In this document: in pieces, positions 4,487-27,092 of the stretch
Layout of the letters: each line of letters begins with the position of its first letter
Position numbering within the stretch: the stretch's first letter is position 1
Virus genome (UHGV): UHGV-1373571
Reading direction: 5' to 3' (one strand)
Length of the DNA stretch: 47,808 nt
Source of the DNA: a virus
The notes under the pieces: model-generated
What the model was told of the DNA's origin: nothing
Databases searched by the model: none
What the model saw: only the letters and a program-made list of their open reading frames with translations
Made by a program: the position numbers and the translations under genes

Positions 4487-5139
4487 GCTGCCTCCGTCTT
4501 CACAACTTCAATGGCGCAGCCGGGGATCAACTCAACGGAAGCGGTGGCGCACTGGTTGCCCCAGTGACTCCAGCCTGGCGCTGCGCTTCGGCTGAAAAGC
4601 TCAATCCGCGGCACGTCGCCGTAGAGCAGTTCTAGGCGGTGCCTAACTTCCCACGGTTTCTCGCTGTGCGCGCCGAGCGGGCTGTAGACCACCTGCTTAA
4701 TGCCGGCGTGTTTGCGCTCCAGCCCGGTGCCGCGGGTGGCGATTAGTACGTCTTCGGTGTTGGCGCGGGTGTGGTTGCCACCGTTCATGCGTGTCTCGGC
4801 ATTCAGCAGGTCGAGGAAGTCGTAAAAGTCGGCTAACTCTCCCTCTGCCAGGGCCTTGGTAATGCGCAGTTCGGCCAGCTGATTCAACTTCACCCAGGTG
4901 AAACCCTTCATTGTGCGCACCGTAAAGCCCCAGGCTTCGGCCAACTCGATCGCCTCCTGGTTGTGGGTGCCGGTGTACCACATCGCCAGCACAGCGTTAT
5001 CCGCGGCGAGCTCCCACACCGGGAGCCGCTTCATATCGAGCAGGCTCATGGTGGGGTAGTGATCGACGGCGGCGCCGTTGCTTATCGTGTTCCCGTAAGA
5101 CCAGGCTGGGTCGGCATAGATAAGTGAGTAGCGGTTCAT
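4483..5139 (-). CDS. DNA N6-adenine methyltransferase, MT-A70 family (phage Dam-like)
   Basis: 218 aa; the N-terminal IYADPAWSY motif is the DPPW-type catalytic motif of MT-A70/phage Dam methylases. Confidence 0.8.
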   Translation of the reverse strand: MNRYSLIYADPAWSYGNTISNGAAVDHYPTMSLLDMKRLPVWELAADNAVLAMWYTGTHNQEAIELAEAWGFTVRTMKGFTWVKLNQLAELRITKALAEGELADFYDFLDLLNAETRMNGGNHTRANTEDVLIATRGTGLERKHAGIKQVVYSPLGAHSEKPWEVRHRLELLYGDVPRIELFSRSAAPGWSHWGNQCATASVELIPGCAIEVVKTEAA

Positions 5140-19427: not shown

Positions 19428-19564
19428 ACCGTGACGTTATCGAACGCATCCGGGATCGCTGGCAAAAGCTCCGCCTCTGCCGGCACCGCGGCACCGTACT
19501 GGTTGACTACCGCATACTGAGAAATTTCGTTCGCATCTATCAGACCCTGGGAGAGACAGCATGA
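19424..19564 (+). CDS. hypothetical small basic protein
   Basis: 46-aa ORF (MNRDVIERIRDRWQKLRLCRHRGTVLVDYRILRNFVRIYQTLGETA), ATGA-coupled on both sides. Confidence 0.3.
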   Translation: MNRDVIERIRDRWQKLRLCRHRGTVLVDYRILRNFVRIYQTLGETA

Positions 19565-20253
19565 TTAATACCCAATACCTCCAGTATGTTCGCCAGCAGC
19601 TGATAGTGGCCACCGCTGATCTGAGCGGTGCGACGAAAGGGCAACTGGTGGCCTTTGCAGAGAACGCGCAATTCACCGCTACGGCGCGCAGCCGGGGAAG
19701 GAAGAAAATAGCCGATCCGGTAACCGGCCGCATGGTAAACCCATCCAGCCCACCAATTCCCGGGCAGCAGTCCCGCGCTAAGGGTTCATCAATCGCTCTC
19801 GTTCTGCCCGTTGAGTATTCGACGGCCAGTTGGCGCCGGGCTCTGCTGTCGCTGGAAGAGCATCAGAAAGCGTGGTTGCTGTGGAACTACAGCGACAATA
19901 TCCGCTGGGAGCACCAGGAGACGATCACCCGGTGGGCATGGGAGCAATTCAGCGAGAAGCTGGCCGGTGTGCGCATTGCAAAAAAGACAGTCGATCGCCT
20001 TCGTCAACTTATCTGGCTGGCGGCGCAGGACGTCAAAGCCGAACTGGCAGGGCGGGATACGTATGAATACCAAAAGCTTGCCGCCCTGGTCGGAGTGACC
20101 CCGAAGAACTGGTCAGAAACGTTTACGGAGCGGTGGGAGGAGATGAAAACAACCTTGCGGCGCCTTGATAGCGATGCCCTGTTGCAGGTAACGCGATCAC
20201 GTTCACAACAAAAGGCGACAAATTTTGACTCAAGTCTTGCAAAACTGGATTAA
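19561..20253 (+). CDS. putative late-gene antiterminator, assigned by position only (Q-like; lacks cysteines)
   Basis: 230 aa. It sits between ninG and the lysis cassette and is followed by a short leader with a strong intrinsic terminator (tR'-like). No zinc finger, so if it is a Q analogue it is not lambda-Q-like. Confidence 0.4.
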   Translation: MINTQYLQYVRQQLIVATADLSGATKGQLVAFAENAQFTATARSRGRKKIADPVTGRMVNPSSPPIPGQQSRAKGSSIALVLPVEYSTASWRRALLSLEEHQKAWLLWNYSDNIRWEHQETITRWAWEQFSEKLAGVRIAKKTVDRLRQLIWLAAQDVKAELAGRDTYEYQKLAALVGVTPKNWSETFTERWEEMKTTLRRLDSDALLQVTRSRSQQKATNFDSSLAKLD

Positions 20254-20821: not shown

Positions 20822-21136
20822 ATGCAACGTATGAACCCAACCGATGGTCACAATCTGCCTTACTGGTGGTCAGCCTTGCTTGGTATCTTTTCCGTCCTGA
20901 GTCTGCAGGATTATGTCTTCATCATTGGCGCCCTGATCTCTGCCTTCTTCACAATCAAGACGTATTACGCAAAGCGCAAGGAAGAGCGAGAGCGACTGGA
21001 TGAAGAGAAAAAGCGCACGCAGCTGTTGGCCAGTTATCTGGCTGATGTCTCCGCAAAGCCTGGGGGTGACCGCCCGGCTTCAGCCGAAGTGGTAACCGAG
21101 GCTTTGAAGCGGATCGCAAGTGATACACAGGGGTGA
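20822..21136 (+). CDS. holin, two TMDs (pinholin-like), with a dual-start motif
   Basis: 104 aa. MQRM dual start (Met1 and Met4 separated by an Arg). TMDs [14 protein letters not shown] and [14 protein letters not shown]. Charged C-terminus. GGAGG RBS. Confidence 0.75.
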
Positions 21137-21642
21137 TCATGACGCCATCAATGAGGAAGAAACTGATTGGCGTGATCGCCGGCGGTGGCGGAGCCATAGC
21201 CATTGCTTCTGCGCTCATCACTGGCCCAACTGGTAACGATGGTCTTGAGGGTGTGCGATACAACCCTTATCAGGATGTGGTAGGCGTCTGGACTGTCTGC
21301 TATGGCCATACTGGCAAAGACATCATGCTCGGCAAGAAGTACACCGAGGCTGAATGCCGTGCGCTGCTCAATAAAGACCTGAACACCGTCGCACGCCAGA
21401 TTAACCCGTACATCCAGAAGCCGATCCCCGAGACAATGCGCGGGGCTCTTTACTCGTTCGCCTATAACGTCGGCGCTGGCAATTTCCAGACCTCCACGCT
21501 GCTGCGCAAAATCAACCATGGTGACCAGAAAGGTGCATGTGATCAGCTGCGCCGCTGGACCTACGCCAAGGGTAAGCAGTGGAAAGGCCTGGTAACTCGT
21601 CGCGAGATTGAGCGCGAAGTTTGTCTGTGGGGGCAGAAATGA
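21133..21642 (+). CDS. SAR endolysin, T4-type lysozyme (GH24)
   Basis: 169 aa. The N-terminal signal-anchor-release segment is [23 protein letters not shown]. The catalytic E-8x-D-5x-T triad context reads [25 protein letters not shown]. Confidence 0.85.
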
Positions 21643-21742
21643 GATACGTACCGTCGGCGATATGCATGGCCGCGGCGGGATTCATTGCCGCCAGTGGACA
21701 TGATGGGTGGGGGTGGTTTCTTTTCGTTGGGGTAATTCTGCT

Positions 21743-22120
21743 ATGACTCGCCTAACCGCCATCGTAAGCGCTGTGATTATCTCCCTTATTGCCTCAATGG
21801 CATGGGCTATTCACCATTACCGCGACAACGCCATCACCTTCAAAGAGCAGCGTGATAAAGCAACGGTCAGGGCGGAAACCGCCGAGACCGTTAGCAATAG
21901 CGTGGTCACCGCAATGAACCTCATCAATGACATTTCCCGGGCAACCCAGAATGCAAAGACCGAACTTTCCCAGGCAGGTGAGAAGCGTGTTATCTACATC
22001 AGGCAGGCGCTTGAAGGCGATCAGTGTGCTAAGCAGCTTGTTCCTGCTGCCGCTGCTGACAGCTTGCGGGAATACGCGGACGGTATACGTGCCGGCTCCG
22101 GTGGTCCCGATAAGCGCTGA
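21743..22120 (+). CDS. Rz-like inner-membrane spanin
   Basis: 125 aa from the ATG at 21743 (the track ORF starts at 21707). N-terminal [23 protein letters not shown], then a periplasmic coiled coil. Rz1 is nested in the +1 frame. Confidence 0.65.
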
Positions 22121-22280
22121 CCTTACTGCAGACACACCGATCCCCGGAATGGAGGTTCCGTTCACGTGGCAGGCTAGTCTGGAGTTAAACGCGAAGCTTT
22201 ACTCTGCGCTGGGGCAGTGCAATCTGGATAAGGCGGGGATTAGAAAGATAGAGGAAGGACGCCGTAGTACTTTGCAATAA
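21927..22280 (+). CDS. Rz1-like outer-membrane lipoprotein spanin (start uncertain)
   Basis: In the +1 frame within and beyond Rz. Signal peptide with lipobox [21 protein letters not shown]. Pro-rich mature part. Confidence 0.55.
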
Positions 22281-22353: not shown

Positions 22354-22547
22354 GTATACCTCCTTGGTTGTGAATGGTTGTCAGTGCTTCTCTTGTGTAA
22401 CTTATGTCTCCCTGTGGCCGCTCCTACTCCGGTAACATTAAAGGCCTTAAGTGGTTATTTTTTGCTCTATACTCGCCGCTGTTGAATCCGCGGGATGTTG
22501 GACAAGCCCTTTCTAATAGTGAGTCTTAATAGCTTCTGAGCAGTTTT

Positions 22548-22565
22548 TGTCTCTTATAAGAGACA
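22548..22565. promoter_or_regulatory. 18-bp perfect palindrome TGTCTCTTATAAGAGACA flanked by GACAAG(C/T)CC(T/A)TTC direct repeats
   Basis: Seen directly in the 460-bp ORF-poor spacer between the lysis cassette and the packaging/head operon. Confidence 0.4.
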
Positions 22566-22740
22566 AGTCCATTCATGCCTGCAGGCAAAGGCGGGAACCG
22601 AAAGAGGCGTTCAATAATTTTATAAAATTCTGCAAATGATGCCTTTTTGGTGTCATTAGCAGAGTTTTATGTAAATTTACTGATGCTGCGGTGACAAAAT
22701 TACCGAGAAAGCATCAAGGCAACCCAGGGGATTATTCTGT

Positions 22741-23376
22741 ATGGCTGAAAATAACAATCGCAGACCATACCCTCCTGTCAACTTCGCTGGCGAAAACTGG
22801 CTGCCATATACCCGGCTGATCCCTGCTTTCGAAATTGGCGATTGGATTAACCAGAACATCCTCTCTGAAGAGGGGCGAATCCATAACCCTGACCATACGC
22901 ACCTGGTCGATGCTGATGTGGCATTCATGTGGGCCTCTGGCTCCTTCGCCAAAAGTGGCCGCATTGTGCTGGGTCAATGTGAGCAGGTAATGATGCGCGC
23001 CGGCGGCTGGCAGAAGTCCCGCATGGAGCAGCAGATGCATGAATGGTTCGGTCGTATACCGAAGTTCATCATCACTCTGGCTGCCGACTACTGCGAGCAA
23101 TGCAACGATCTGGAGTTCTGCGCACTGGTAGAGCATGAGCTTTATCACATCGCCCAGGCTACCGATGACTATGGCGCGCCGAAGTTCAACAAAGAGACCG
23201 GGATGCCGGTGCTCAAACTTCGCGGTCATGACGTCGAGGAGTTCGTCGGAGTGGTCCGGCGTTACGGCGCCAGCAAAGACGTGCAGGAAATGGTTGATGC
23301 GGCGAACAGGCCGGCGGAGGTTGCTCATATCGATGTTGCCAGAGCATGCGGGACGTGCATGCTGAAACTGGCTTAA
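22741..23376 (+). CDS. putative zinc metallopeptidase (HExxH motif), unknown family
   Basis: 211 aa containing LVEHELYHIAQ (HExxH). First gene after the long spacer, upstream of terS. Confidence 0.5.
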   Translation: MAENNNRRPYPPVNFAGENWLPYTRLIPAFEIGDWINQNILSEEGRIHNPDHTHLVDADVAFMWASGSFAKSGRIVLGQCEQVMMRAGGWQKSRMEQQMHEWFGRIPKFIITLAADYCEQCNDLEFCALVEHELYHIAQATDDYGAPKFNKETGMPVLKLRGHDVEEFVGVVRRYGASKDVQEMVDAANRPAEVAHIDVARACGTCMLKLA

Positions 23377-23407
23377 TAACTGGACTGTACTGGACGGATG
23401 GTGAAAC

Positions 23408-23893
23408 ATGGCTGCACTAAAACCAGAGGTGAAAGCCGCCATCGTTCAAATGCTTGCGTGCTATGACACGCCTTCGCAGGTGGTCGAGGCTGTCCAGAAA
23501 GATTTCGGTATCACCATCACTAGGCAGCAGGTTGAAACTCACGACCCGACAAAGGTTAGCGGCAAGACGCTCGCCAAAAAATGGGTAGACCTCTTCAACC
23601 GTACCCGCGACCGCTTCCTCAACGAAATTTCCGACATTCCGATCGCCAACAAGGCCTACCGCCTGCGCGTCCTGCAGCGAATGTCGACGACTGCCGAGGG
23701 TATGAAAAACCTCGGGATGACAGCTCAGTTACTGGAGCAGGCAGCAAAAGAGGTTGGCGACGCCTATAGCAACAAGCAAAAGTTCGAGCTGACCGGTAAA
23801 GACGGCGGCCCGCTGAATCAGGTGACGTACACCGCTGAAGACTATGCGAAGGCCCAGCAGAAGCTGGAGGGAAGGTTAGAAGGGCTGGACTGA
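23408..23893 (+). CDS. putative terminase small subunit (DUF2280-like)
   Basis: 161 aa, HTH-like N-terminus (AIVQMLACYDTPSQVVEAV), immediately upstream of and coupled to the terminase large subunit. Confidence 0.55.
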   Translation: MAALKPEVKAAIVQMLACYDTPSQVVEAVQKDFGITITRQQVETHDPTKVSGKTLAKKWVDLFNRTRDRFLNEISDIPIANKAYRLRVLQRMSTTAEGMKNLGMTAQLLEQAAKEVGDAYSNKQKFELTGKDGGPLNQVTYTAEDYAKAQQKLEGRLEGLD

Positions 23894-23894
23894 T

Positions 23895-25571
23895 ATGAGC
23901 GGAATTATCGAATGGGATGACCTGTCATTCCCGGAGCGCGTGATCATCCGTTCAAAGTCCACGAAGTCATTCCTGAACTTCACCCGGATATGGTTCGAGA
24001 TGATTCAGGGCGATCGGCTGCTGGTTAACTGGCATCACCGCCTGATGGCTTCGAAAATTGATGATCTGCTTGCCGGGCGCCTTGTCCCGCGAAACCTGAT
24101 TATCAACATCCCGCCAGGCGGTACAAAAACAGAGTTCTTCTCCATCCACTTCCCGGCGTATGTCAACGCCCTGGTGCAGGAGAAGCGGCTTAAACGCTTT
24201 CGTAACCTGAATATCTCTTTTGCTGACACGCTGGTAAAGCGTAACAGCCGGCGCACCCGCGACATTATCGCCAGCCGTGAATATCAGGAGTTCTGGCCCT
24301 GCTCGTTTGGTGTCAACCAGGCAGAAGAGTGGGAGATAAAGGACGATCGAGGGCGCTCTATAGGCCAGACGGTATCGCGCTCAAGCAACGGGCAGATCAC
24401 CGGTGGTCGTGGTGGCTACTATGGACCAGAGTTTTCCGGCATGGTGATGCTGGACGACTACAACAAGCCGGTGGACATGCTCAGCGAGTCCCGACGCAAA
24501 AGCGCGAATACGCTGCTGGTAAACACCATTCGATCACGCCGCGGCGATAAGTCGAAAGAGCACCCGACTCCGTTTGTGAGCATTCAGCAGCGCCTGCACA
24601 CCGATGACGCAACGGGCTTCATGCTTGCCGGCGGAATGGGCGTGCCGTTTCACCATGTCGCCATACCGGCCATGATCGACGAGAAGTACATCCAGTCGCT
24701 CGATGAGCCATGGCGTTCGCTTTGCTGGGAAACGGTCAAAGATACCGATTCAGTGGTCGTTGGTGGCGTTCGCTACTGGTCCTACTGGCCGCAGATGGAA
24801 GACGTTAACGACCTCCTGCAACTGTGGGAAAAGGATCGCTATACCTTCCTGTCGCAATACCAGCAAAACCCGATGGCGCTGACAGGCGGGATTATCGACA
24901 CCAGCTGGTTCAGAACGTACACCACGCTGCCGAAGCTTACGCACCGCGCCGTGTACGTCGATACGAACAGCGGGAAGGTAGAGGACTGGCTGGATTACAC
25001 CGTGTTTACGCTGGCTGGCATGGGCGTGGACGGGAATCTGTACATCATCGACGTCGTTCGCGGCCGGTGGGACCCGGAAGACCTCCTGAAGAAAGCGGAA
25101 GAGGTTTGGGAAAAGTGGCGCCTCTCTGGCTCCATGCGGGTCATGCCGCTGCGTCATATGGCCATTGAAGAGAAGCAGGCCGGACAGGGCCTCATCACCA
25201 CTCTGAAAAAACGTAGTCAGACCCCCGGGCAACTCGCCATCCCGGTGAGGGAAATCCCGCGCGGCACCGGGCAGAACAAGCTTGTTCGCTGCCTTAACGT
25301 CATCCCCCAAATCAAAACCGGGAAAGTGTTTGTCCCCGCCACGCACACCGACGACGGACAGAAGCTTTCCAGCATCTTCTACGAGGACGGCACGATCGCA
25401 GGCTCAACGGAGTGGGTGCTGACGGCGATGACGGAATGCGCTGCTTTCTCCGCTGATGACAGTCACGACAACGACGACATCCTCGATACCTGGATGGACG
25501 CAATCGACGACAACCTGATTTCCGGCCCGCAGCCGATGGTTATCGACCCGAATCAACTCAGGAGAATTTAA
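23895..25571 (+). CDS. terminase large subunit
   Basis: 558 aa. N-terminal ATPase (INIPPGGTKTEF), C-terminal RNaseH-like nuclease with acidic residues (VYVDTNSG...DDSHDNDDILD). Confidence 0.85.
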   Translation: MSGIIEWDDLSFPERVIIRSKSTKSFLNFTRIWFEMIQGDRLLVNWHHRLMASKIDDLLAGRLVPRNLIINIPPGGTKTEFFSIHFPAYVNALVQEKRLKRFRNLNISFADTLVKRNSRRTRDIIASREYQEFWPCSFGVNQAEEWEIKDDRGRSIGQTVSRSSNGQITGGRGGYYGPEFSGMVMLDDYNKPVDMLSESRRKSANTLLVNTIRSRRGDKSKEHPTPFVSIQQRLHTDDATGFMLAGGMGVPFHHVAIPAMIDEKYIQSLDEPWRSLCWETVKDTDSVVVGGVRYWSYWPQMEDVNDLLQLWEKDRYTFLSQYQQNPMALTGGIIDTSWFRTYTTLPKLTHRAVYVDTNSGKVEDWLDYTVFTLAGMGVDGNLYIIDVVRGRWDPEDLLKKAEEVWEKWRLSGSMRVMPLRHMAIEEKQAGQGLITTLKKRSQTPGQLAIPVREIPRGTGQNKLVRCLNVIPQIKTGKVFVPATHTDDGQKLSSIFYEDGTIAGSTEWVLTAMTECAAFSADDSHDNDDILDTWMDAIDDNLISGPQPMVIDPNQLRRI

Positions 25572-27092
25572 GTGTGGTGGTTTAAAAAGAAAGAAGTCGC
25601 CGCGCCTGAGCCGGCAAAAGAACCGGAAGCACCGAAGGTCGGGATCAGGCCCGAGTCCGTGGCCGAAGTCCGCGCATCACCGAAAAGAGAGTTTCAGCGC
25701 TACGAACCGCCGAAAGGGGTGATCCCCGAGGCTATCAAAAGCGCCATTCTGGCAATGGACTCTACGCCTTACGATGCTCTCAATGCTGCGTATGGCGGTT
25801 ACGGCTACGGCGACTTTGATAGCTTTCCCGGATACCCGTATCTGGCCACGCTGGCGCAGAAGCCTGAATATCGCAAGATGGTTGGCACCATCGCGGAAGA
25901 AATGACCCGCAAATGGATAAAGCTCAAAACTGTCGGCGATGAAGACAAGGCGGATCGGGTAAGAAAACTTGAAGAGGCCATGAAGCGGTTTAAGGTGCGC
26001 GAGCGCTTTAAAGAAGCCGCAGAACACGACGGCTACTTTGGCGGCGGCCAGATTTACATCGACGTTCGTTCGCCGCGGGGAATCTCCGCATGGATGGACG
26101 ACAACGAGCTGCAATCGAAGCTCTTCATGAGCGACAAGAAAATCACGAAAGGCAGCCTGCAGGGGTTCAGGGTCATCGAGCCTATCTGGACCTATCCGGG
26201 GATTTATAACTCCGACAACCCGCTGAGCCCGGATTTCTACAAGCCGACGCAGTGGTTTGTCATGGGTCGGACCGTACATGCAAGCCGGATGATTGATTTC
26301 GTCTCGCGGCAGGTGCCGGATCTGCTGAAAGCATCGTATAACTTCCGCGGCCTGTCTCTCTCGCAGATTGCTGAGCCATACGTCAATAACTGGCTTCGCA
26401 CCCGCGACAGCGTCAGCGACATGATTCACTCGTTCTCTGTTCCGGTAATCGGAACAAATATGAGCACGATTCTGCAGGGCGGTGGGGCAGATAGTCTTCT
26501 GGCAAGGCTTGATGTCTTCAACCGATGCCGCGATAACCGTGGCGCATTCGCTAAAGACAACAACCCTACCCAGCCAGAAACGGTTGAGTTCGTTAACGCC
26601 CCGCTTAACGGTCTGGATGCCCTGCAGGCACAGTCGCAGGAGCACATGTCTGCGGTTTCGAGCATCCCGCTCGTCAAACTGCTGGGCATTACTCCAAATG
26701 GCCTTAACGCAACGTCTGACGGCGAAATCCGCGTTTTCTACGACTACATTCACGCCCTGCAGCAGTCTGTTTTTAAAGACAACCTGAAGCGTGTGATGGA
26801 CATTATTCAGCTCTCTGAGTTCGGCGACATTGACGATGGCATAACCTTCGACTTTGAGCCGCTGTACGAAATGAGTGCTAAAGAGCGGGCGGAAATTCGC
26901 AAAGTAGACGCGGACACTGACGCTGTCTATGTGGCCGCCAGCGTGCTCTCTGGCAACGAAGTCCGCGAAAAAATTGCCGGTGACCCGGATTCGCCCTATC
27001 ACTCTCTGGACCTGAATGATGACCTCGAAATCGAAGACGACTACGACGAAGAGGAAGAAGCAGACCCTGACGATAAGGGCGGTTCATCCTAA
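25572..27092 (+). CDS. portal protein
   Basis: 506 aa, GTG start. Follows terL. Acidic C-terminal tail (DLNDDLEIEDDYDEEEEADPDD). Confidence 0.7.
   Translation: MWWFKKKEVAAPEPAKEPEAPKVGIRPESVAEVRASPKREFQRYEPPKGVIPEAIKSAILAMDSTPYDALNAAYGGYGYGDFDSFPGYPYLATLAQKPEYRKMVGTIAEEMTRKWIKLKTVGDEDKADRVRKLEEAMKRFKVRERFKEAAEHDGYFGGGQIYIDVRSPRGISAWMDDNELQSKLFMSDKKITKGSLQGFRVIEPIWTYPGIYNSDNPLSPDFYKPTQWFVMGRTVHASRMIDFVSRQVPDLLKASYNFRGLSLSQIAEPYVNNWLRTRDSVSDMIHSFSVPVIGTNMSTILQGGGADSLLARLDVFNRCRDNRGAFAKDNNPTQPETVEFVNAPLNGLDALQAQSQEHMSAVSSIPLVKLLGITPNGLNATSDGEIRVFYDYIHALQQSVFKDNLKRVMDIIQLSEFGDIDDGITFDFEPLYEMSAKERAEIRKVDADTDAVYVAASVLSGNEVREKIAGDPDSPYHSLDLNDDLEIEDDYDEEEEADPDDKGGSS

Follow-up and report, generated by a model that had tools for sequence, protein, structure and literature searches.

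A putative phage metallopeptidase gene coupled to a probable small-terminase gene of the DUF2280 type

The metallopeptidase gene and its family

The stretch of DNA analysed here, which we call the window, is one strand of the virus genome UHGV-1373571, 47,808 nucleotides (nt) in length. At 22741..23376 on its + strand lies an open reading frame (ORF) with an ATG start and 211 amino acids (aa). The evidence for this gene, which encodes a PF18894 'putative phage metallopeptidase', comes from an ORF finder, Pfam, PHROG, RefSeq and an AlphaFold2 (AF2) model. Its translation includes CALVEHELYHIAQ and EFCALVEHELYHIAQ; HELYH is residues 132-136. The packaging block opens with this ORF as its first gene. 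It is followed on the same strand by a DUF2280 gene (23408..23893; PF10045, E 1.4e-48), probably encoding the small terminase (TerS, gene terS), and by the gene for the large terminase subunit, TerL (23895..25571; PHROG 38, E 1.4e-99; NCBIfam TIGR01630). The portal gene, found by profile searches, comes next (25572-27092). A preliminary description of the sequence had placed a 211-aa HELYH ORF between the lysis genes and terS, and both the ORF and its position were confirmed. The gene itself is not new, its product being a typical member, also in its length class, of a known and catalogued family. What is new is the near-obligate, module-level coupling of the metallopeptidase to the DUF2280 small terminase.

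The protein matches the Pfam family PF18894 (PhageMetallopep) with an E-value of 3.3e-43 and 147.4 bits, against a cut-off of 23.7 bits, and the alignment spans profile positions 2-134 of 134. PF18894 is matched equally by all of 122 diverse relatives, which are 32-53% identical to the window protein. We regard the membership of the window protein in PF18894 as almost certain; a named family exists for a protein that the preliminary description was unable to place in one. The other zincin families considered there (SprT-like, ImmA/IrrE and DUF4157) were searched in Pfam as well, and the window protein matched none of them. The family is large, with 4,338 homologous clusters at 90% identity and 842 at 50% identity (E <= 0.001), and HExxH is present in 127 of 128 full-length representatives. 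Its members occur in phages and prophages, including 143 phage records, at least 583 IMG/VR stretches and prophage contexts in E. coli. Public records already hold proteins that are 93-96% identical to the window metallopeptidase. For 93%-identical genes in E. coli prophages RefSeq uses the name 'putative metallopeptidase', as do some phage depositors.

A second name, 'transposase', is attached to PHROG 513, which the ORF matches with an E-value of 2.5e-100, and to homologues in phages ZF40, ENT47670, phiPSA1, YMC11/02/R656, PHB04 and others. About a quarter of the best representatives (36 of 150) reach a length of 245 aa or more, and a segment resembling a helix-turn-helix (HTH) occurs in most of their N-terminal extensions. 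In some of these longer members the HTH is of the IS3-OrfA type, with weak HTH_Tnp_1, HTH_8 and MerR matches. The label likely stems from this extension, which the window metallopeptidase does not have. Beyond the weak HTH_Tnp_1-like extension of some long members, the domain content of the family gave no support for a transposase, and the label on PHROG 513 and on several GenBank records is probably a misannotation that has spread. It merits correction in annotation pipelines.

Across the 122 relatives, four residues of the metallopeptidase are invariant: H132, E133, H136 and H163. The first three belong to the HExxH motif (H132-E133-L-Y-H136, codons at 23134..23148, + strand), which by analogy with zincins would provide two metal ligands and the catalytic base. 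The block H163-D164-V-E166 (23227..23238, + strand) is the candidate source of a third metal ligand, with D164 and E166 conserved at 93-96%. Because several members have Q, S, T or A in place of E166 and none has lost H163, H163 is the likelier third ligand, and the case for E166 as a gluzincin-type third ligand is weakened. Judged from these patterns in the sequence, H132, H136 and H163 are probably the metal ligands, with E133 as the catalytic base.

Conservation extends beyond this putative active site. At least 90% conserved are also P9, H52, H54, L55, W64, W90, G104, T112, G154, D164, E166, R174, G176, P192, C203 and G204. Among them, H52 and H54 (98% and 96%) form a near-invariant HxH, H52-T-H54 (22894..22902, + strand), and C203 (98%) pairs with C206 (about 88-90%) in a subfamily-specific C-terminal CxxC, C203-G-T-C206 (23347..23358, + strand). 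A single structural zinc site built from H52, H54, C203 and C206 was ruled out: the HxH persists in short distant members without the C-terminal CxxC, which is missing from PHB04 and from two further relatives (L098 and L099), and elsewhere C206 is often V or T. Near the N terminus, the proline-rich motif R8-P-Y-P-P12 (22762..22776, + strand) has P9, P11 and P12 conserved at 86-91%, and these are invariant in alignment A2.

The AF2 model of the metallopeptidase, built on the 122-sequence alignment, has a pLDDT of 93 and a pTM of 0.88. It contains strands at residues 60-65, 78-82 and 109-114, with a helix (89-103) between the second and the third. A further helix (123-134) bears the HExxH at its end and is followed by a small hairpin and by helices 169-175 and 179-188. 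The model has no helix or strand before residue 26, and the R8-P12 motif lies outside regular secondary structure; the CxxC falls in the low-confidence tail. A zincin-like core has been described as a sheet of three strands and a helix with HExxH, after which comes another helix that supplies the third ligand (PMC5512222); the order of secondary-structure elements in the model would fit this description.

Amino-acid conservation reaches 0.9-0.99 in the core of the metallopeptidase, while synonymous codon diversity averages 0.36, and the gene is under strong purifying selection. Taken alone, an HExxH motif is weak evidence. Here it is far beyond a chance occurrence because the match to PF18894 covers the whole protein, the family is large, key residues are invariant and the core is conserved while synonymous sites vary. 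PF18894 proteins may bind zinc and act as peptidases. The zincin-like protease proposed at the outset gains from the confident model of an HExxH-bearing PF18894 protein with the order of a zincin core; the comparison with solved structures, in which no match was significant, did not add to it.

Coupling to DUF2280 and exchange of TerL

The gene neighbourhood was compared across 100 loci, comprising the window, annotated relatives and IMG/VR contigs, in which the family gene was located by hidden Markov model and its neighbours were extracted. DUF2280 lies directly downstream in 93 of these loci and follows one small inserted ORF in 2 more, which places it within 0.5 kb in 95 of the 100. The gene after the metallopeptidase usually encodes a protein of 149-165 aa, and the gap between the two is usually 30-32 nt. 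The five remaining loci hold distant members, three of them on 90-140-kb contigs. The numbers of records with a metallopeptidase and with DUF2280 are equal by host genus (Acinetobacter 62/62, Pseudomonas 44/44, Vibrio 8/8, Burkholderia 7/7). Each of the two genes occurs in 52 of 5,426 complete E. coli genomes, and wherever the matches listed include both, about 31 nt separate them. The position beside the terminase genes is conserved across divergent phages.

We have very high confidence in this linkage. A single type of small-terminase gene nearly always follows the metallopeptidase gene directly, so that the latter is no free-floating accessory gene; the linkage suggests that its product might have a helper role in DNA packaging. 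The preliminary description had named a conserved terminase accessory factor as the finding that would speak against its own reading. At the level of gene linkage this is what was found; at the level of function, the protein may be such a factor.

Two side observations concern the pairing in individual genomes. In E. coli 2023CK-01482 the metallopeptidase-DUF2280 region occurs both in the chromosome (NZ_CP141749.1, at about 3.88 Mb) and in a 47,948-bp 'plasmid' (NZ_CP141750.1), which is probably an excised circular phage genome that was assembled separately. In Acinetobacter phage AM106 (L003) a hairpin resembling an intrinsic terminator, GAGCC-TTAT-GGCTC followed by T8, lies at about 4629-4650, after the metallopeptidase stop codon and before the repeats described below and terS. 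Because of this hairpin, the metallopeptidase and terS may not be co-transcribed in every lineage.

Homology blocks, obtained by BLASTN of the window region against all collected loci, delimit what is inherited together. The left end coincides with the start codon (22741) in about 22 loci and lies some 120 nt before it, near 22619, in about 20 loci. A conserved untranslated leader (22619..22740, + strand) moves with the gene in the latter group of related loci and is kept in four Klebsiella phages. The right ends, from about 70 loci, lie inside DUF2280 at 23766..23820 (+ strand; codons ~120-137 of 161). This stretch is a recombination hot spot, past which the C-terminal tail of DUF2280 and TerL are swapped as a separate block. 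Beyond the boundary, TerL falls into at least 11 clusters with little or no mutual similarity, and across these clusters the metallopeptidase is 70-96% and DUF2280 60-87% identical to that of the window. The metallopeptidase, the spacer and the N-terminal three-quarters of DUF2280, which would comprise its DNA-recognition and oligomerisation part, are inherited as one block. The C-terminal tail of DUF2280 moves with its TerL, which fits a tail that binds TerL.

The exchange of TerL also bears on an earlier suggestion that the protein might be a virion maturation factor. A role in capsid maturation is unlikely for a protein that, at 70-96% identity, occurs together with at least 11 unrelated TerL types and their differing downstream genes. 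The window protein also had no Pfam or PHROG match to prohead protease families.

DUF2280 is probably the small terminase, given its size, its position abutting TerL, its predicted layout and its best fold matches. Its stop codon abuts the TerL start. The model of DUF2280, a weak one built from a shallow alignment (pLDDT 59.5), predicts an N-terminal three-helix bundle, long helices, a disordered linker and a C-terminal helix, and this layout fits that described for TerS proteins (PMC9611059). Its best fold matches are the Sf6 and G20c small terminases, neither of them significant.

Profile searches identified the genes upstream of the metallopeptidase as a Q antiterminator (19561-20253), a holin (20822-21136), a lysozyme (21133-21642) and an Rz-like spanin (21707-22120). 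An ORF at 21927-22280 in the +1 frame overlaps the 3' part of the Rz-like gene and extends 160 nt beyond it; because it contains a lipobox-like LLTAC, it resembles an overlapped Rz1-type outer-membrane spanin. An AT-rich gap of 460 nt separates the spanin genes from the metallopeptidase ORF. Conserved non-coding DNA at about 22400-22740 includes a perfect 20-bp palindrome, TTGTCTCTTATAAGAGACAA, at 22547-22566, and the untranslated stretch around it is AT-rich (GC 0.43). The same palindrome is kept in four independently assembled Klebsiella phages, which rules out a Nextera/Tn5 adapter artefact. An Rfam search over the whole window, including the palindrome region, gave no match.

The preliminary description had also considered that the gene might be a moron. 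Its GC content (0.553), GC3 (0.651) and codon usage are like those of the surrounding late genes. On the + strand, consensus matching found no promoter- or terminator-like site between the spanin gene and the metallopeptidase ORF; the sole such sites, again consensus matches only, follow Q, as expected for a pR'-tR' arrangement. This late-gene composition, the missing promoter and terminator of its own, the presence of DUF2280 in 95 of 100 loci and the equal counts in phage records and E. coli genomes all speak against a moron.

Co-varying repeats at the 5' end of terS

The 31-nt spacer between the metallopeptidase gene and terS (23377..23407, + strand) contains two direct repeats of ACTGGAC with a period of 10 nt (23379-23385 and 23389-23395), and after them comes the ribosome-binding site of terS. 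A third, inverted copy (GTCCAGA on the + strand) lies on the - strand at 23492..23498, in terS codons 29-31 and about 85 nt into the gene. Perfect direct repeats of at least 6 nt were found in 18 of 40 distinct spacers, compared with 0.87 expected from shuffles (maximum 4). With the minimum lowered to 5 nt, 24 spacers have a repeat; 22 of them show a period of 10 nt and two a period of 11 nt. The sequence of the repeat is lineage-specific (ACTGGAC, ACCTGGAC, TTTATAC, TATGAC, TTTGGAA, TCAGGAC; GCTGTACG in Acinetobacter phage AM106), and both spacer copies change together from one lineage to another. Where the spacer is very short, the repeats are absent.

The inverted copy in terS follows these changes. 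In an alignment of 36 sequences, 79-80% of cells show complementarity between it and either spacer copy, compared with 65-66% after shuffling and 31-55% when slid, and none of 500 shuffles reached the observed value. Cells in which both the spacer copy and the inverted copy had changed numbered 30-35, against about 11 in shuffles, and the inverted copy changes even where this alters the encoded residues (VQ, VL, IQ, VK). The pattern holds in two distant lineages (L086 and L092); AM106 has the spacer repeats and lacks the inverted copy within terS.

Pairing of the spacer repeats with the terS site as an RNA helix was considered and is disfavoured. RNAalifold predicted no helix between them, and 7 bp closing a loop of about 100 nt would be weak, though the complementarity and covariation are significant. 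Long-range RNA pairing around the start of terS is the less likely explanation. Because RNAalifold does not predict a helix, we interpret the three copies as sites at which a protein binds DNA, with DUF2280 as the most plausible candidate. The repeats at 23379-23395 together with the copy at 23492-23498 are a candidate TerS/pac recognition site. Its layout would resemble the pac sites of P22 and SPP1, which lie in or around the terS gene (PMC9611059).

Possible roles of the enzyme and comparison with known systems

We tentatively propose a packaging-accessory role for the metallopeptidase, to which we give somewhat less than an even chance. The protein would be a zinc-dependent hydrolase with a zincin-like core, expressed late together with the Q-dependent genes, and it is the conserved upstream partner of the DUF2280-type small terminase. 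It would serve as an accessory enzyme at packaging initiation, acting on a protein at or near the TerS-DNA complex. A role in initiation, on or near DNA, is favoured because of the strict terS neighbourhood, the intact module and the HTH fused to many long-form members. The weak SprT-like matches that recur among the relatives count as a further link to DNA.

We consider a more specific version of this proposal unlikely. In it, the zinc protease would be a third, enzymatic component of packaging initiation in the large group of (probably headful) DUF2280 phages, recruited to the TerS-pac complex by its own HTH in the long forms and via TerS in the short forms. At this complex it would either process TerS or remove proteins from the DNA, allowing TerL to begin, and the pac recognition elements would be supplied by the co-varying repeats at the 5' end of terS. 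Homology between the N-terminal HTH of the long forms and the HTH of DUF2280 was looked for and rejected (hhalign probability 1.3%).

Several observations weigh against a packaging role. Foldseek found no significant relative of the metallopeptidase model among solved structures, and for this reason peptidase activity, as opposed to other hydrolase chemistry, is left unproven. A literature search found no experimental paper on any PF18894 member, the sole text match being a genome description; the family gene of Pseudomonas phage JBD44, gene 16, is not the subject of the JBD44 paper (PMC11898732). The identification of DUF2280 suffers from its weak model (pLDDT 59.5) and from the lack of significance of its fold matches. 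The partnership is also not obligatory. In 181 near-identical records of Salinibacter ruber phages, DUF2280 is followed by TerL and there is no metallopeptidase. In these records, among them Salinibacter phage 4_3 (L100; 2932-3980), a hydrophobic, membrane-like protein of 172 aa precedes DUF2280 in the metallopeptidase slot. These phages are a natural case of a DUF2280 terminase type working without the enzyme. Conversely, a short PF18894 protein of Bordetella phage PHB04 is encoded about 2 kb upstream of the terminase region with no adjacent DUF2280, and distant PF18894 members on 90-140-kb phage contigs do not lie beside DUF2280 either. Finally, the two partners diverge unequally. In 481 pairs of loci the metallopeptidases are at least 92% identical while the N-terminal domains of DUF2280 are at most 80% identical, and no pair shows the reverse. 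Because of this asymmetry, the enzyme does not appear to be tuned to a particular TerS specificity. The asymmetry opposes allele-specific co-adaptation, and a constant host target fits it equally well.

The metallopeptidase is the slowest-evolving gene of the region, and its substrate would be a constant one. Candidates are a conserved portion of DUF2280 or TerL, proteins bound to DNA in general, and a host protein. The last of these is the basis of the main rival to a packaging-accessory role, which we consider unlikely while taking it seriously. On this account, the gene encodes a late-expressed protease directed at a constant host protein, either for takeover or to counter a defence that senses late proteins, and it occupies a fixed slot upstream of terS with no role in packaging. 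Evolution slower than that of TerS and indifference to the type of TerL and head are what would be expected for a target outside the virion machinery. The Salinibacter phages, in which DUF2280 works without the enzyme, and the distant family members away from terminase genes fit this account as well, and zincin domains are common as conflict effectors in phages (PMC5512222). The near 1:1 co-occurrence with DUF2280 in phages of Klebsiella, E. coli, Pseudomonas, Acinetobacter, Vibrio and Burkholderia, together with the intact block, would however be unexpected for a host-directed protease. The gene also has neither a promoter or terminator of its own nor an atypical composition, and it shows no similarity to defence profiles: a PADLOC search returned no match for the metallopeptidase, leaving the anti-defence role suggested earlier without positive evidence.

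The linkage might alternatively act only in cis, with a pac site that reaches from the 3' end of the metallopeptidase gene across the spacer into the 5' end of terS, such that recombinants in which the genes are separated lose packaging specificity, regardless of what the protein does. The lineage-specific, co-varying spacer repeats, with their inverted copy about 85-100 nt into terS, agree with such a site, as do the pac sites of P22 and SPP1, located in or around terS (PMC9611059). We nevertheless find this explanation improbable. Within the spacer the repeats are on the side of terS, the block begins on its left exactly with the start codon, some 640 nt away from them, and the pairing is kept in lineages with spacers of 8-13 nt and no repeats. 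A pac site inside the metallopeptidase gene was sought in the variation of synonymous sites; no deep valley of synonymous conservation was present, and hence there is no sign of a cis site within the gene.

It is more doubtful still that the protein is not a peptidase at all and is instead a metal hydrolase of zincin fold acting on nucleic acid, which would assist cleavage by TerL in the way of the HNH proteins of HK97-like phages. Five near-invariant histidines together with D164 and E166 exceed the needs of a single zinc site, terminase-associated HNH genes are found in the same genomic slot, and a gene annotated by depositors as an endonuclease abuts the metallopeptidase in Acinetobacter and Burkholderia phages. 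YbeY, a zincin-like protein, is an RNase. Against this, HExxH with an invariant Glu is the classic signature of a peptidase, and the weak fold and profile neighbours of the protein are all peptidases. The endonuclease gene, for which Pfam did not confirm an HNH domain, is present in addition to the metallopeptidase and does not replace it. Least of all do we expect an ImmA/IrrE-type repressor-cleaving protease, one of the functions first suggested, or a protease for prohead maturation. An HExxH motif encoded by a temperate phage would suit either, but no Peptidase_M78 or prohead-protease profile matched the window protein or the 122 relatives, the gene belongs to the late operon and is remote from the immunity region, its neighbours in the window and in relatives are lysis genes and DUF2280/TerL and not a cognate HTH repressor, and the same protein serves at least 11 unrelated TerL types with differing downstream genes.

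In thousands of temperate phages, with Klebsiella, E. coli, Salmonella, Pseudomonas, Acinetobacter, Vibrio and Burkholderia as hosts, this enzyme is tied to a small-terminase gene. The coupling to DUF2280 makes the proposed packaging role directly testable, and if the enzyme does act in packaging, this would bear on the understanding of pac-type generalised transduction in these pathogens.

Compared with known systems, the only thematically coherent matches of the metallopeptidase model among solved structures are the M48/minigluzincin proteases (Ste24/ZMPSTE24, HtpX, jannalysin, selecase). They share the arrangement of a compact sheet, a backing helix and an HExxH helix. The matches are weak (E 1.6-4.5, probability <=0.12, TM-score <=0.21), and sequence searches against solved structures, with the single sequence and with the 122-sequence profile, returned nothing relevant. 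Unlike these proteases, the window protein has no membrane segments, and the expected Glu third ligand (E166) is not invariant.

In a viral structure library, the model matched other PF18894 proteins, three uncharacterised Bacillus phage G proteins and, weakly, SprT-like proteins. With SprT-like proteins, Wss1 and Spartan it shares a small HExxH domain, a probable His third ligand and an association with DNA binding, through the HTH of the long forms. Sub-threshold matches to the SprT-like profile (PF10263) occurred in 7 of the 122 relatives (best E 0.012), and the Foldseek probability to viral models was 0.28-0.47. The window protein itself had no match to this profile, and neither it nor any of the 122 relatives reached the family threshold. 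The spacing of 27 residues from H136 to H163 and a context that is not one of DNA-protein crosslinks differ from SprT-like and Spartan proteins. A distant superfamily relation between PF18894 and SprT-like proteins is possible. ArdC-type proteins likewise pair DNA binding with a zincin domain, as the long-form members do, whereas the ArdC-N domain is absent from the PF18894 protein.

ImmA/IrrE proteins (Peptidase_M78, COG2856) are also an HExxH zinc protease family of mobile elements. The PF18894 gene differs in that its product has no M78 match, in the window protein (E <= 0.1) or in the 122 relatives (E <= 1), no XRE-type repressor gene is adjacent and it is part of a late operon. The DUF4157 profile similarly matched neither the window protein nor the 122 relatives.

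A parallel in terms of gene position is offered by the HNH terminase accessory proteins of the HK97 gp74 type, which are listed among packaging helpers (PMC9611059). They too are small metal-dependent enzymes encoded beside the terminase genes, outside the TerS/TerL pair. Their fold and motif are entirely different, and they accompany cos-type, HK97-like terminases, whereas the partner of the PF18894 protein is DUF2280. Were the metallopeptidase needed for packaging, a protease would join the short list of terminase helpers, which includes HNH proteins, IHF and herpesvirus pUL33.

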